IMG/VR virus record: IMGVR_UViG_2547132415_000009
Location: 1-4,142 of that record
Strand: one strand, 5' to 3'
DNA length: 4,142 nt
From: a virus
Lineage: Duplodnaviria > Heunggongvirae > Uroviricota > Caudoviricetes
Numbering within the stretch: the stretch's first letter is position 1; each line of letters opens with the position of its first letter. The notes below the pieces were generated by a model. That model saw nothing but the letters and a program-made list of their open reading frames with translations, ran no database searches and had not been told where the DNA came from. A program made the position numbers and the translations under genes. Positions 1 to 4,142 of this stretch are shown here, piece by piece.

Positions 1-110
1 TCATCGGTTCGTCTGAGAATTACGTGCAACTGCGCACGCGACACCCGGAGACAACGGCTGACTAAGCTTACTCCCCATCCCCGGGCAATAAGGGCGCGTG
101 CGCTATCCAC
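1..110 (-). CDS. insD: IS2 transposase OrfB (InsD), N-terminal 36 codons only; rest lies beyond the window edge
   Basis: Minus-strand translation from GTG at 110: [37 protein letters not shown], the N-terminus of IS2 InsD. It is in the -1 frame relative to InsC and overlaps its 3' end. Confidence 0.88.
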
Positions 111-433
111 TTTTTTGCACGCCCGTATTCAACGGCTTCTTTAAGGAGTTCATTTTCCATCGTTTTTTTGCCGAGCAGGCGCTGGAGTTCTTTAATCTGC
201 TTCATGGCAGCAGCAAGTTCAGAGGCAGGAACGACCTGCTCTCCTGCGGCCACAGCAGTAAGACTTCCCTCCTGGTATTGCTTGCGCCAGAGAAATAACT
301 GGCTGGCTGCCACACCGTGTTGCCGGGCAACAAGGGAGACCGTCATTCCCGGTTCAAAACTCTGCTGAACAATAGCGATCTTTTCCTGTGTAGTACGCCG
401 TCTGCGTTTCTCCGGTCCTAAGACATCAATCAT
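68..433 (-). CDS. insC: IS2 transposase OrfA (InsC), 121 aa
   Basis: Translation [53 protein letters not shown]... matches IS2 InsC as I recall it. The ORF-track start at 478 is a spurious N-terminal extension into the terminal repeat; the ATG at 433 is the authentic start. Confidence 0.93.
110..116 (-). other. A6G slippery heptamer (A AAA AAG in the InsC frame) for programmed -1 frameshifting to make the InsCD fusion transposase
   Basis: Minus strand reads GTGCAAAAAAGTGG. In the InsC frame the codons are GCA AAA AAG, immediately before the InsC/InsD overlap. This is the classic IS3-family frameshift arrangement. Confidence 0.7.
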
Positions 434-483
434 CTGCTCTCCAATGACTAGTCTAAAAACTAGTATTAAGACTATCACTTATT

Positions 484-524
484 TAAGTGATATTGGTTGT
501 CTGGAGATTCAGGGGGCCAGTCTA
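484..524 (-). repeat. IS2 left terminal inverted repeat (IRL, about 41 bp) at the element/prophage boundary
   Basis: The terminal TAGACTGG... motif ends exactly at 524. The adjacent left-end region (441-500) contains the palindromes ACTAGT...ACTAGT and TCACTTAAATAAGTGA typical of the IS2 left end. The exact inner boundary of the IR is approximate. Confidence 0.8.
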
Positions 525-1268
525 AACGCCGATCTCACACGTAACCAGTAAAGGAAAACTAGTTCTCCAATTTAGCTCGCCAATTACAGGCATTCGCTCA
601 CTACAGCTTATCCAACTATCCGGAGTTACCGGATAGTTGCGCATTGCGACCTTTAATGCCTCATAGAAGCAACCTTTCAGATTGTTGAACTGACGCCCAT
701 TAAGAGGACCGTGTTCAGTAAGCATGTTGCGTAATTTCCATGCCGCGTCGTTTACTTCGTTGGATGACAGGGGAGGCAACTTGTAAGTTTGGCTTACAGG
801 TTCGGCACCATGAAGCATGGCGCCGCTCCGCTCTATGCCATCCAGCGCGATTCGCAGTGCCTGAATTGTGGTAGAGCTATCGTTTGGGGCTATTCCATAT
901 CGCTCGAATACAGCTAAATGGTTGCGCATAATCTCAGGCGTAAGCTCTTTGTAAGCATAAGCAAGAGGCTCTGATGCATTATCCGGCACAACCGACGCAG
1001 GCGCGGCAGCATAAACAGGAATAACGTCAGCTTGCTCTTTATTGCTTTCATCCGTTAAAGCCCAGAATAATTTCCCGGCCGGATGTTTGAAAATATAAGC
1101 AACTGGATCTGCTTCCAGCGATGCCAGTGCAATTTTAAATGCGGTAAGTATGTTGTTAACCACACCTATTTCGAATGCTATTTCACTACATACAAACGAT
1201 TTATCGTCTATTATCGACTCAATTCCGGTAATCGTGTTCTGTAACCATTCTTTGGTAAGAGTATTCAT
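522..1268 (-). CDS. Hypothetical prophage accessory protein, 248 aa as read; 3' end truncated by the IS2 insertion (stop codon supplied by the IS2 terminus)
   Basis: Long ORF with ATG at 1268, 2 nt after the stop of the upstream 63-aa ORF. The final codons GGC GTT TAG use 522-524, which are the terminal TAG... nucleotides of IS2, so the native C-terminus is missing. No family recognised with confidence. Confidence 0.6.
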   Translation of the reverse strand: MNTLTKEWLQNTITGIESIIDDKSFVCSEIAFEIGVVNNILTAFKIALASLEADPVAYIFKHPAGKLFWALTDESNKEQADVIPVYAAAPASVVPDNASEPLAYAYKELTPEIMRNHLAVFERYGIAPNDSSTTIQALRIALDGIERSGAMLHGAEPVSQTYKLPPLSSNEVNDAAWKLRNMLTEHGPLNGRQFNNLKGCFYEALKVAMRNYPVTPDSWISCSERMPVIGELNWRTSFPLLVTCEIGV

Positions 1269-1270
1269 AA

Positions 1271-1462
1271 CTATTTCACTTTAATCTCAATATTTCGCAG
1301 CTTTAGCTCTACTGGCAGGTCTGACTTTCCTGTTAACGCTAATGCGAGATTTTCAGGAGTAATGAGAGCAGTTATTGTTTTCCCTATTGCCAGACGAATA
1401 ATCATTCGTATCTCGCGATCGTCACATGCTCCCGGTCGAACAATTGATATTTGTCCGATCAT
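1271..1462 (-). CDS. Hypothetical small protein, 63 aa (MIGQISIVRPGACDDREIRMIIRLAIGKTITALITPENLALALTGKSDLPVELKLRNIEIKVK)
   Basis: ATG at 1462 is preceded by AAAGGAGAG (GGAG 6 nt upstream), and that Shine-Dalgarno overlaps the TGA stop of the upstream 217-aa ORF. The ORF-track start at 1492 looks like a spurious extension. No homology recognised. Confidence 0.5.
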   Translation of the reverse strand: MIGQISIVRPGACDDREIRMIIRLAIGKTITALITPENLALALTGKSDLPVELKLRNIEIKVK

Positions 1463-1463
1463 C

Positions 1464-2117
1464 TCACTCTCCTTTGATGCGAATGCCAGCAAGCCAGTTT
1501 CTTATGCCGATATATTCAGCGTTCCTGAAACCGCTTTTTACATATATAAATGGCAAGCGAAGATTGTGACCATTGGCTGCCAGGTAGTCTTTACAACCCT
1601 GTTCGGTGAAACAGCAGGTAACGAATTCATCAATATCTTTCACAGCAACGCGCCGCCATTTTTCTGGTGGTTCCCGAAAGTTTTCATGAAGTAGTTCGAG
1701 ACGACGACTTTGGAGTTTATTGGCTTCATTGCTATCTTCATCAACCCAGACAATCCGGTCATAGTCATAATCAGCATCAACAACAATTTCGCGCTTTTGA
1801 TACACACAAAACATAGGGTCTGACGTTATTCGATTATCCTGTGTTCGAATGTTTTCACCGATGATGCCAAACGAATCTGGCGTAGGTTTTGTCTGTAACT
1901 CTTCGATACGTTCAGCCAGCGCCGCGCACTTGGCCTCAAGGTTATCAATCGTGATTCCAGCAGAACGACACTCCCGCAACGCCGTTTCCAGTTTTGATTC
2001 AAGTTCACCGAACTTACGGACAAGATATTCAGCGTTTGTTTCGTTAACCTTTAAATCTCGTGGGATGCATTTACCTTTCAGAAATCCATCCATCTCAATT
2101 AGTGACATTTGTTTCAT
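1464..2117 (-). CDS. Hypothetical protein, 217 aa; predicted coiled-coil N-terminal half and acidic, Cys-containing C-terminal half
   Basis: Longest unassigned ORF. The ATG at 2117 overlaps the TGA stop of the upstream 54-aa ORF (ATGA) and has GGAG 9 nt upstream. The ORF-track start at 2135 is a GTG with no Shine-Dalgarno. The helical heptad-like stretch [44 protein letters not shown] is judged by eye. Confidence 0.6.
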
Positions 2118-2278
2118 TTCTTCCCACTCCGCCACATCGCATTCAGATATTTGTTTTGATTCACTGACGGAAAAGAATTTCTCTTAAGCAATTCCTCTCT
2201 CGATGGCATTGGCTTTACGCGTTGGCGAATAATCATTTCTGCCGGAAGAATGCCGGGATTGTATGCAAGTCCTCTCAT
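2114..2278 (-). CDS. Hypothetical small basic protein, 54 aa ([54 protein letters not shown])
   Basis: ATG at 2278 has a strong Shine-Dalgarno (TGAGGAA, 6-nt spacer) that overlaps the TGA stop of the upstream 97-aa ORF. Its own stop overlaps the start of the 217-aa ORF. The ORF track shows a longer 104-aa form from 2428, which would overlap the 97-aa gene out of frame; I prefer the short form. Confidence 0.45.
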
Positions 2279-2288
2279 GGTAAATTCC

Positions 2289-2582
2289 TCAGTCATTACT
2301 GATAGCGCCATAACGTGAGCGGTAATTACGCAGGCGCGGGTCAATTTCAGGGAAGTGGGTATATGTGGCTTTGCGGAATGGTCGGATTGATGTCTGGTAA
2401 ATTCGCTCGCGTTCTTCTTTCTCTGCAAGCCATATACAGTGGCGAAATTCCTTTTCCTCTTTCGTTTCCTGCGGTAGAGACATTATTCGGTCGTAGTTTT
2501 TTCTGAATTTATCCAGCACCTCCGATACGGAATTGCCGGAACAGCGGCGCGGGTCATCCGCACCATACAGAGGCGCTGGCAT
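2289..2582 (-). CDS. Hypothetical highly charged protein, 97 aa
   Basis: ATG at 2582 is preceded by TAAGGAT (AAGGA, 7-nt spacer) in the 23-nt gap after the SSB-like gene. Translation [63 protein letters not shown]... No homology recognised. Confidence 0.55.
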
Positions 2583-2605
2583 AATTAAATCCTTATTTTT
2601 CTAAA

Positions 2606-2989
2606 TCAGAATGGGATGGAATCGTCGTATACAGGAGTGTTCTGCTGGTTACTACTTTGCTGCTGCGGGCCATTTCCTGAAGCTGCAAATCCAATCTTTG
2701 CATTCAGTAATTCAAGAGTGATTGATTGACCATTTTGCCCCTGATAAACATCAACCCTGATGTTTTCTCCGGTAATTTCCACAATGCCACCTTCAGCAAG
2801 AACACTACGGTAGTAATCCGCTTGCGCTCCCGGCTTGGCAAATACAACGGCGCTGTAGTTTGTCCATTCTTTCTTTTTTGTCTGGCGATCGTAATACTGA
2901 ACGCCAGCACGGATGTTGAATCCGATATTTTCCCCGGCCTGAAACTCTCTTGCGGGCTTGTTTAGTCTTACAGTAATCGAATGTGCCAT
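2606..2989 (-). CDS. Phage single-stranded-DNA-binding-like protein (lambda Ea10-like), 127 aa, with acidic C-terminal tip ...VYDDSIPF
   Basis: The C-terminus ends in DDSIPF, closely resembling the conserved SSB C-terminal protein-interaction tip (DDDIPF). The start ATG overlaps the erf stop (TAATG at 2987-2991). The ORF-track N-terminal extension to 3079 runs inside erf and is rejected. The Ea10 family assignment is from memory. Confidence 0.65.
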   Translation of the reverse strand: MAHSITVRLNKPAREFQAGENIGFNIRAGVQYYDRQTKKKEWTNYSAVVFAKPGAQADYYRSVLAEGGIVEITGENIRVDVYQGQNGQSITLELLNAKIGFAASGNGPQQQSSNQQNTPVYDDSIPF

Positions 2990-3594
2990 TAAGCGGCCGC
3001 CCCTTCTAATTCGTCTCGTCTGATGTTGTAAACGTCCTGCGCTTTGTGCTGCTCCGGTGTGCCTTCGAGCATCTTCCACGCTTTGGCGAACGCCTGTTTA
3101 AGCTCTTCCACGGTGTTTTTCTGCAATGCTGCGTCAGTGAATGCTTTTAGAACCTGTTCAGGTGTAGGTGATGGTTTTGATTGCTTTGCTGCTGCGTTCT
3201 GCTGATGTTTATGCTCGTCGGTATCTGCATCTTTCGCATCATCAATGCCGAACAAACCATTGAGGCAATACTTGCGTGCATAAGAGCTTGTAGCTCCAGT
3301 AACTTGTGCAGAATCCATTCCTTTCTTGCTTTCTTCCTCTCGTGCAAGAGCGGTTGCCGTATGACTGTTTTCGCCATCGGTAATAGTTGCCGTGGCTTTC
3401 ACGTAATACCGATCACCAATCAACACAACTTCATCGCTGATTGATAAAAACAGGCCATTCAGTAACGGCTTAACGCCTTCAAGAATGTCTTCGCAGCTTC
3501 TGTATTTATATTTGCCGAATGAGTTGTACTGATTCTTTGGCGCGTTCAGATTCTCCTGAATAGCTGCCAGTCTTGCGTAAAATTCTTTGCTCAT
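2989..3594 (-). CDS. erf: Erf-family single-strand annealing protein (essential recombination function, P22 Erf-like), 201 aa
   Basis: Translation MSKEFYARLAAIQENLNAPKNQYNSFGKYKYRSCEDILEGVKPLLNGLFLSISDEVVLIGDRYYVKATATITDGENSH...ATSSYARKYCLNGLFGIDDAKDADT matches the P22 Erf N-terminal domain as I recall it. The start is placed at the ATG at 3594 (MSKEF...); the ORF-track start at 3624 is a TTG extension. Confidence 0.85.
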   Translation of the reverse strand: MSKEFYARLAAIQENLNAPKNQYNSFGKYKYRSCEDILEGVKPLLNGLFLSISDEVVLIGDRYYVKATATITDGENSHTATALAREEESKKGMDSAQVTGATSSYARKYCLNGLFGIDDAKDADTDEHKHQQNAAAKQSKPSPTPEQVLKAFTDAALQKNTVEELKQAFAKAWKMLEGTPEQHKAQDVYNIRRDELEGAAA

Positions 3595-3683
3595 ATGTTT
3601 GTTCTCAGAATGGACATGGCCCAAGGAAATAACGCTGATTTAATACTTCAGTCTTTGCCGCATTTAAAAATACGCGAACACCT

Positions 3684-3854
3684 TCACGATCTCCCTTCTG
3701 GCGATACATTAACGCCTGCTGCGTGTACATGCGTCTCTGTAACTTGCTCTCCTTCACTGTGGTTGCAAGTGACATGCATATCTCCTTCGTTACCGATTAA
3801 TTCTTTCATCTGACGAATGAATTCTTCGTCTGACCAGTTATCTGTAAAACTCAT
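3684..3854 (-). CDS. Hypothetical small acidic protein, 56 aa, with a His/Cys cluster (MHVTCNHSEGEQVTETHVH); sits where kil/arf lie in P22
   Basis: ATG at 3854 overlaps the TGA stop of the cIII-like ORF (ATGA), with AAGG 6 nt upstream. The ORF-track start at 3884 is a TTG extension. No confident homology. Confidence 0.45.
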   Translation of the reverse strand: MSFTDNWSDEEFIRQMKELIGNEGDMHVTCNHSEGEQVTETHVHAAGVNVSPEGRS

Positions 3855-4021
3855 GGACGGCCTTGTTGTTTCAAAATATCCCAAAGCTTTTCGAGCAAAC
3901 TTTTCATTCTTGGTTGTTTAAAGTCTGCTCCGGTTAAAATATTTTTTCGTGAATGCTGTACCGATAAAATCGGGTTGAAAGGGCGAACCGATGCCGCCCC
4001 TGCAATAGCGAACTGTTGCAT
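3851..4021 (-). CDS. cIII-like small regulator, 56 aa (MQQFAIAGAASVRPFNPILSVQHSRKNILTGADFKQPRMKSLLEKLWDILKQQGRP); putative FtsH-inhibitor family
   Basis: Not in the supplied ORF track; found by hand translation. Strong Shine-Dalgarno AAGGAG with a 6-nt spacer before the ATG at 4021. The N-terminal MQ-FAIAG and C-terminal KLWDILKQQGRP resemble lambda CIII (MQYAIAG... KRLIDILNQPGVP) as I remember it, and the length is similar. Confidence 0.5.
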   Translation of the reverse strand: MQQFAIAGAASVRPFNPILSVQHSRKNILTGADFKQPRMKSLLEKLWDILKQQGRP

Positions 4022-4142
4022 AGGATGCTCCTTCTGTTTGATTGCATAACGAAAACGCCTCGAGTGAAGCGTTATTGGTATGCGGTAACGCCGCGCTCAG
4101 GCGGCTTTGATAGTCATATCATCTGAATCAAATATTCCTGAT

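Follow-up and report, generated by a model that had tools for sequence, protein, structure and literature searches.

An IS2 insertion in the early-left region of an HK022-like lambdoid prophage and its possible response to read-through transcription

Gene content of the window and the IS2 insertion site

The stretch of DNA analyzed here (the window; 4,142 nt) is the complete contig AQEI01000032.1 of draft assembly GCA_000354915.1, which breaks inside a repeated insertion sequence (IS). The pL promoter, the antitermination region and xis/int would be located outside this contig, as would the remainder of IS2 (with the DDE-coding part of orfB and the right inverted repeat, IRR) and its second junction. 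Every gene in the window lies on the minus strand. Window positions 524→1 make up the left 524 bp of an isoform of IS2 (IS3 family, 1331-bp class); IS2 nt 1 corresponds to window position 524, and read 5'→3' on the minus strand, the element begins with TAGACTGGCCCCCTGAATCTCCAGAC. Below, "nt" followed by a number refers to IS2 numbering unless a length is meant, and all other positions are those of the window. The features of the IS2 part are as follows:

1..524, minus strand: left part of IS2 (524 bp), with 95.8% identity to K-12 IS2A and 100% to a full-length copy in E. coli L73; cut off by the contig end
483..524, minus strand: left inverted repeat, IRL (IS2 nt 1-42), identical to K-12 IS2, with its length taken from PMC3299598 and PMC3219604
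501..512, minus strand: IRL segment CUGAAUCUCCAG (IS2 nt 13-24), a predicted "anti-SD" complementary to the insC Shine-Dalgarno (SD) region
469..477, minus strand: native promoter PIRL, extended -10 TGATAGTCT (IS2 nt 48-56), assigned from PMC3299598
473..492, minus strand: palindrome TATCACTTA/TAAGTGATA, overlapping the OrfA operator (inverted-repeat analysis)
449..474, minus strand: palindrome TAGTCT..ACTAGT..AGACTA (inverted-repeat analysis)
434..444, minus strand: insC translation initiation region (IS2 nt 81-91), with the SD GGAGA at 442-438 and the ATG at 433-431
68..433, minus strand: insC/orfA, encoding a 121-aa HTH DNA-binding protein (stop 70-68; ATG at IS2 nt 92; Pfam HTH_Tnp_1, E 1.8e-19)
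110..116, minus strand: A6G slippery motif AAAAAAG (IS2 nt 409-415), with a role in the -1 frameshift that makes OrfAB according to PMC3219604
1..110, minus strand: first 110 nt of insD/orfB (start at 110), identical to the N-terminus of K-12 InsD1 and cut by the contig end

The element carries the IRL sequence, an orfA gene encoding an HTH protein, an A6G window for -1 frameshifting and an overlapping orfB, all of which are hallmarks of IS2. Over the 524 nt, it differs from K-12 IS2A by 22 substitutions (95.8% identity); by the ISfinder convention, sequences with at least 95% nucleotide identity to the reference IS2 are isoforms of it. The first 87 nt are identical between the two copies, 21 of the 22 substitutions fall in insC or insD codons and are without exception synonymous, and the remaining one falls in the SD-AUG spacer, at nt 88. 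Consequently, InsC matches K-12 InsC1 at 100% identity and InsD agrees with K-12 InsD1 over its first 36 residues, so that the window copy shares with IS2A its IRL, PIRL extended -10, SD, InsC, A6G site and InsD N-terminus, and is set apart by these substitutions and by a new insertion site. Many E. coli chromosomes and plasmids contain these 524 nt at 100% identity. One of these copies, from E. coli L73 (L003, 2501-3831), is full length: it spans 1331 bp, includes an IRR, is flanked by the 5-bp target duplication ATGCC, and is 95.7% identical to IS2A over the 1331 bp. Because codon changes are exclusively synonymous and identical copies are found in many E. coli, one of them full length with IRR and target duplication, this isoform is a common one that is selectively maintained. 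Positions 1-524 are the left end of an IS2 copy that is ordinary and apparently functional.

Upstream of IS2 in the direction of transcription, the window holds the following prophage genes:

4021→3851, minus strand: cIII-like ORF (PHROG)
3854→3684, minus strand: small ORF overlapping the next one (PHROG)
3775→3605, minus strand: small ORF overlapping the previous one (PHROG)
3594→2989, minus strand: erf (Pfam ERF, 2.1e-44)
2989→2606, minus strand: SSB-like analogue of Abc1 (PHROG)
2582→2289, minus strand: abc2, anti-RecBCD (Pfam Anti-RecBCD_p2, 6.1e-64)
2278→2114, minus strand: DUF2737 gene, 54 aa (Pfam, PHROG, and HK022 and E. coli annotations)
2117→1464, minus strand: Ea22-like gene, 217 aa (Pfam, PHROG, and HK022 and E. 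coli annotations)
1462→1271, minus strand: 63-aa ORF of the "ea" region (gene call)
1268→522, minus strand: 248-aa gene of the "ea" region with a C-terminal DUF551-type domain, truncated by IS2 (intact DUF551-annotated homologue; PHROG 6847/60)

With cIII, erf/abc and ea genes following one another on a single strand, the window has the characteristic gene content and order of the lambdoid early-left (pL) operon, and the label "early-left operon" given in the original prediction is upheld by the cIII-like, erf, abc2 and ea22 genes standing in HK022 order at 97% identity. The small ORFs between 3605 and 4021 match PHROG 1723, 2123 and 550, with HK022_42 and 42.1 identical or nearly so, and the recombination module at 2289..3594 (minus strand) matches PHROG 155, 44 and 656 and is 97% identical to that of HK022. 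Overall, HK022 genes 37-42.1 are colinear with the window at 97% identity. At the nucleotide level, window positions 1459-3854 align colinearly with the HK022 left operon, as one block of 96.2% identity (1459-1930) and one of 97.1% (1990-3854); shorter matches lie at 589-640, 982-1135 and 4028-4083. In HK022 and related E. coli prophages, this region is preceded by the repressor and by Nun or N, and is followed by further ea genes, xis and int, all on one strand. Judged from sequence, the host element is an HK022/P22-like lambdoid prophage of the mosaic type, and by analogy with these relatives, xis and int are presumed to lie beyond IS2 here as well. The original prediction had also placed IS2 immediately downstream of the operon; this part did not hold, as the element sits inside the distal ea region, with xis and int beyond that region in relatives. 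A search of the whole window against Rfam returned nothing, its best hit being a chance match to RsmY (E 0.88).

The insertion point could be located to the base. The TAG stop codon of the 248-aa ORF consists of IS2 nt 1-3, and from exactly the point at which this TAG begins, an intact homologue, found in E. coli EC17CM7, has 57 further residues. The ORF was therefore truly truncated by the insertion, as had been proposed. The target "ea" gene, a DUF551 accessory gene, is dispensable, and a duplication of AACGC would be expected at this locus. The junction between prophage and IS2 was reproduced in an independent Logan assembly of SRR488683, and a protein look-up found the exact 248-aa product only on the window contig and on one Logan contig (1558 bp). 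The exact junction was present in none of 5,426 complete E. coli genomes and in none of the GTDB species representatives. Given this absence, the insertion is a strain-specific event, and possibly a recent one.

Orientation of IS2 and transcription from the prophage

As originally noted, insC and insD are encoded on the same strand as the prophage genes, and the gap between the truncated ORF and insC, put at about 90 nt, measures 88 nt from stop codon to ATG. The prior for the orientation of an IS relative to the operon that contains it is 50%, and the 46 distinct natural IS2 contexts that we surveyed comprised 6 co-directional, 5 opposite and 35 unclassifiable cases, where contexts were classed by open-frame length, which is a crude method. 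There was no orientation bias among the classifiable natural copies (6 versus 5). With a prior of one half and a survey of this outcome, the arrangement is no more than would be expected by chance, and it is most simply regarded as a 50:50 accident rather than as a selected regulatory coupling. Phage records were too few for a similar survey: 10 of them carry IS2, none within the early-left operon. Two further loci that seemed to offer additional co-oriented early-left cases (L001, with IS2, and L002, with another IS3-family element) were rejected, since the search joins same-strand pieces only and had thereby picked them for that orientation.

A direct precedent for a co-directional IS in an early-left operon is provided by HK022, which carries IS903 inside its pL operon with the transposase gene pointing the same way, as IS2 does here. 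The two cases differ in that IS903 belongs to the IS5-type family and occupies a proximal site, between nun and cIII, while that of IS2 is distal, in an ea gene. Since HK022 is a viable phage, such an arrangement is evidently tolerated, and we know of no regulatory coupling for its IS903. The kind of arrangement is thus already known, and the present case is a further example, strain-specific, of IS2 inserted in a mosaic lambdoid prophage. The ideas that surround it go back to the 1970s and 1980s; they are activation by read-through, RNA fold-back as self-protection, and antitermination that suppresses IS2 polarity.

For prophage transcription to reach insC, it has to pass the sequence between the early-left genes and IS2. 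It had been stated that no obvious intrinsic terminator stands at the junction, and a pattern scan of the minus strand agrees with this: it found no terminator-like site from 1102 to 1, and no intrinsic terminator (a GC-rich hairpin followed by a U-run) was detected at the junction on the minus strand of window 1268 to 433. The two palindromes at the left end of IS2 were considered as terminators and rejected, as they form AU-rich hairpins without a U-tail. From the contig end to IS2, the only terminator-like sites were a weak one inside an ORF (1119→1102) and the following:

4073→4054, minus strand: terminator-like hairpin upstream of the cIII-like ORF (pattern scan)

Rho-dependent termination within IS2 itself also had to be considered, as galEP3 reporters use IS2 as a cassette of Rho-dependent terminators (PMC3737525). 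In the galEP3 and gal::IS2 systems, the classical settings for IS2 polarity and for its suppression by lambda N, IS2 lies in the path of operon transcription, as it does here; those studies followed the expression of genes past the IS, unlike the transposase output that is at issue here. The sense strand of the window copy contains 23.6% C and 29.2% G, and rut-like windows with C in excess of G number 1 of 63 on the sense strand (at nt 1-78) versus 8 of 63 on the antisense strand. Because the sense strand is G-rich and has fewer rut-like windows, its composition suggests that the Rho-dependent polarity of IS2 arises in the antisense direction rather than in the one at issue here.

Part of these data can also be read as signs that meaningful read-through does not take place at all, and that IS2 is expressed from its own weak promoter only. 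This would be the case if the prophage were cryptic, or if transcripts stopped before or just inside IS2. The cryptic form of this explanation supposes that pL, the antiterminator or the immunity region is lost or permanently repressed; in the other form, transcripts could stop at the hairpin at 4073→4054, or Rho could act on the first ~78 nt of IS2, which are C-rich and untranslated. Candidates for both stops are present, with the sole sense rut-like window at nt 1-78 beginning just past the point where ribosomes leave the truncated ORF. In addition, neither a promoter nor an antiterminator is contained in the window, where the scan found only 3 promoter-like sites versus 6.8 expected, many E. 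coli prophages of such mosaic type are defective, and a strain-specific, possibly recent junction that is missing from all complete genomes searched fits this explanation too. Against it, the early-left ORFs of the window are intact and share 95-97% identity with their counterparts in viable phages, HK022 and HK633 among them, and IS2 itself is the only sign of decay within the window. Moreover, antiterminated complexes ignore both intrinsic and Rho-dependent terminators. We consider an absence of meaningful read-through unlikely.

With regard to the means of antitermination, the original prediction spoke of N-antiterminated transcripts. For this prophage, that is an assumption: HK022, the closest phage, depends on put RNA for antitermination and not on N. 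Adhya, Gottesman and de Crombrugghe are said to have described, in 1974, antiterminated early-left transcription that passes through IS2 and overrides its polarity. If the prophage is inducible, early-left transcripts would probably enter IS2 upon induction. Practical consequences are modest, consisting of a truncated accessory gene and of an IS placed between pL and the presumed xis and int genes; with 1.3 kb of IS in that position, excision after induction would rely on antitermination across the IS.

Predicted pairing of IRL with the insC ribosome-binding site

Transcripts that enter IS2 from outside differ from its native transcripts in containing IRL. The extended -10 of PIRL starts with TGAT at bp 48-51 (PMC3299598), and from standard spacing, transcription would start at about nt 62-65. 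It had been suggested that the left-end palindromes might sequester the insC ribosome-binding site in read-through transcripts. The direction of this suggestion was right, yet the element was not: neither local palindrome (473-492 or 449-474) pairs with the SD in any fold, and both were rejected as ribosome-binding site traps. The candidate is instead a perfect 6-nt inverted repeat formed by TCTCCA (nt 18-23; window 502-507) and TGGAGA (nt 82-87; window 438-443), 58 nt apart, whose predicted helix is extended by pairs 13-15:89-91 and by a G·U pair at 24:81. The IRL arm of this repeat lies upstream of the native -10 (nt 51-56), which means that native transcripts cannot hold it and that only outside transcripts carry both arms.

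When the junction RNA was folded, as had been proposed, the SD was indeed predicted to be mostly paired in read-through RNA, although to an extent that depended on the transcript boundaries. For the native start, P_unp(SD), the probability of an unpaired SD, was ~0.9 irrespective of the 3' end, whereas for read-through RNA in the window's own context, it was 0.02-0.38 for most boundaries. In a set of 37 different natural insertion contexts of IS2, P_unp(SD) had a median of 0.03 and P(SD:IRL 18-22) one of 0.94-0.95, versus a native median P_unp(SD) of 0.73. In silico mutation of nt 19-22 raised P_unp(SD) from 0.02-0.23 to 0.52-0.80, and only 2-3% of dinucleotide shuffles of nt 1-62 occluded the SD equally well, so that the real sequence beat 97-98% of them. 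The SD:IRL helix is also the earliest that can form during transcription (P 0.99 for an RNA ending at nt 100). Among relatives that have diverged to 82-95% InsC identity, the SD was always less exposed in RNA starting at nt 1 than in RNA with a native-like start.

Other results indicate a less uniform picture. This isoform has a further GGAGA, at nt 112-116, that rivals the SD for the UCUCC of IRL, and because of this competition, P_unp(SD) reached 0.55-0.73 for some transcript boundaries, giving a whole range of 0.02-0.73. In the minimum free energy structure of window 584→405, the SD sits in a hairpin loop. Fold z-scores at the junction were unremarkable (-1.6 to -1.7). Among relatives with 82-95% InsC identity, no covariation was found for the IRL-SD helix, both arms being nearly invariant, and the relatives that lack CUCC (L084 and L086) showed no compensating change. 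The IRL arm is constrained by transposase binding anyway.

The same logic is found in IS10 and IS50, where a repeat arm upstream of the element's own transcription start pairs with the transposase ribosome-binding site in external transcripts only. IS2 has the same layout, with a proximal arm before the native start and a distal arm over the SD. For IS10 and IS50, a protection from outside transcription by fold-back inhibition was reportedly described by Davis, Simons and Kleckner in 1985 and by Krebs and Reznikoff in 1986. According to the passage of PMC2965389 that cites Davis et al. (1985), IS10 and IS50 shield themselves from outside promoters by such an architecture, and transcription across an end of IS10 inhibits the use of that end. 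In comparison with these elements, the IS2 fold-back is predicted only, is context-dependent in this isoform and comes without covariation support.

A natural exception also limits how strong the effect could be. In the minicircle junction promoter, Pjunc, the tip of IRL (TAGACT, nt 1-6) serves as the -10 box (PMC3299598, PMC3219604), and transcripts from this promoter are reported to supply transposase for the second transposition step (PMC3219604). With the -10 at the tip of IRL, these transcripts would begin around nt 12-14, and the anti-SD would therefore be part of them too. As they are functional nonetheless, the fold-back cannot be an absolute block, and would be a damper at most.

Coupling of prophage induction to IS2 transposition

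The original prediction went on to propose that derepression of the prophage raises transposase expression: antiterminated transcripts would be translated into more InsC and InsCD, thereby coupling IS2 transposition to induction or the SOS response. Several of the above findings suit this proposal, in particular the co-orientation, the 88-nt gap, the lack of an intrinsic terminator, and a G-rich IS2 sense strand with little potential for Rho loading. The alternative fold of this isoform, which leaves the SD in a loop and competes with the occluding fold, would also help, as would the junction-promoter transcripts, which include the anti-SD segment of IRL and still yield enough protein for step II (PMC3219604). 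These points are opposed, however, by the SD being predicted as paired in read-through RNAs in most contexts, and by the biology of the proteins produced. OrfA (InsC), the dominant product, is a repressor of PIRL that binds at the inner IRL end and competes at IRL (PMC3299598), and the OrfAB transposase requires a rare, low-frequency -1 frameshift (PMC3219604). Further arguments against coupling are the inhibition of IS10 end use by transcription through it, in the same passage of PMC2965389 on Davis et al. (1985), and the lack, among natural IS2 copies, of an orientation preference that would hint at selection. Taken together, we judge an effective coupling of this kind to be improbable.

A stronger version of this proposal would have IS2 wired to the prophage switch. 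Here, induction transcripts would be translated despite the IRL-SD fold, causing a burst of transposase during phage replication, so that IS2 would spread into phage copies or the host and hitch-hike in virions. This version takes the fold to be weakened by the second GGAGA at nt 112-116. We regard it as very doubtful, more so than coupling in its simpler form.

The explanation that we favor, and hold to be reasonably probable, is that of an ordinary IS2 in a distal ea gene, oriented with the operon by chance, in which read-through upon induction couples weakly, if at all, to transposition. IS2 transposed into the C-terminal, DUF551-coding part of the "ea" gene and came to point the operon's way by accident. 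Upon derepression, antiterminated early-left transcripts, of either the N type or the put type, would run through IS2 toward the expected xis and int genes. In these outside transcripts, IRL nt 13-24 could pair with the insC SD region (nt 81-91), whereas PIRL transcripts, which do not include that arm, would have an open SD. What is translated would mainly be OrfA/InsC, the repressor, while OrfAB output would be held down by its need for a rare frameshift, and transcription across the IS end would, following the precedents, be inhibitory in itself. Read-through would then have little, if any, effect on transposition. Of the earlier interpretation, the geometry and a plausible read-through are thus retained, while raised transposase expression and transposition find no support here, and the fold-back, the OrfA repressor, the frameshift and the IS10 precedent argue against them.

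On these predictions, the IS2 copy is probably buffered against read-through transcription, as the anti-SD in IRL could insulate insC from transcription that originates outside the element. A dual use of IRL, as a transposase-binding site and as a predicted anti-SD, would be mildly new, and would be general to IS2 rather than particular to this copy.

Coding conservation and strand asymmetry of the IS2 isoform

The coding part of the IS2 isoform (window 1-433, IS2 nt 92-524) was compared with IS2A, the K-12 reference copy. All 21 of the 21 coding differences were synonymous, and the sole non-coding difference lies at nt 88, between the Shine-Dalgarno sequence and the AUG of insC. The comparison indicates that InsC is under strong purifying selection across IS2 lineages. 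The full isoform from E. coli L73 (L003 2501-3831) also showed a strand bias, with a G-rich sense strand. Rut-like stretches with more C than G made up 8 of the 63 windows on the antisense strand versus only 1 of 63 on the sense strand (at nt 1-78). Based on this distribution of rut-like windows, we suggest that classical Rho-dependent polarity of IS2 would mainly be a property of the antisense direction.

The genome contig search additionally returned IS2 copies whose InsC shares 95-100% identity with the query, on tiny contigs of 558-1543 bp (L045, L048, L053 and L071), from assemblies labeled Streptosporangium, Paenisporosarcina, Lamprocystis and Brevibacterium. Most likely these contigs are contaminants that came from E. 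coli.

The early-left operon compared with phage HK022

HK022, the phage closest to the prophage operon, itself carries an insertion sequence in its pL operon: IS903 (L088 7449-8372) lies between nun and cIII, and its transposase shares the strand of the operon. This is a natural precedent for a co-directional insertion sequence within an early-left operon. Two small ORFs in the window lie in different frames and have about 92 nt in common:

3605-3775, minus strand, 56-aa ORF
3684-3854, minus strand, 56-aa ORF

Both match PHROG profiles strongly (E values of 4.5e-34 and 1.1e-39), and both are included in the HK022 annotation (HK022_42 and 42.1). Either the two genes truly overlap, or one of them is a conserved mis-call. 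The similarity to HK022 is interrupted at window 3855-4027 by a mosaic break: where HK022 has kil and a 44-aa cIII, the window has unrelated sequence with one 56-aa cIII-like ORF (phrog_550), and it contains no kil homologue.

Hairpin and junction-proximal sequences

Immediately upstream of the cIII-like ORF, in the direction of transcription, lies a terminator-like hairpin (window 4054-4073, minus strand; AACGCTTC-ACTC-GAGGCGTT followed by TTCGTTAT). The surrounding segment (window 4028-4083) shares 94.6% identity with the stretch that separates IS903 from cIII in HK022. This hairpin may be a terminator of the early-left operon, passed only by polymerase that has been antiterminated.

Closer to IS2, approximately 30-45 nt upstream of the junction, the phage sequence AAATTGGAGAACTAGTTTTCC (window 548-571, minus strand) resembles the ACTAGT…TTGGAGA motifs of IS2 itself. 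It offers an additional GGAGA partner for the UCUCC of the left inverted repeat in long read-through folds; both the likeness and the extra partner are probably coincidental.
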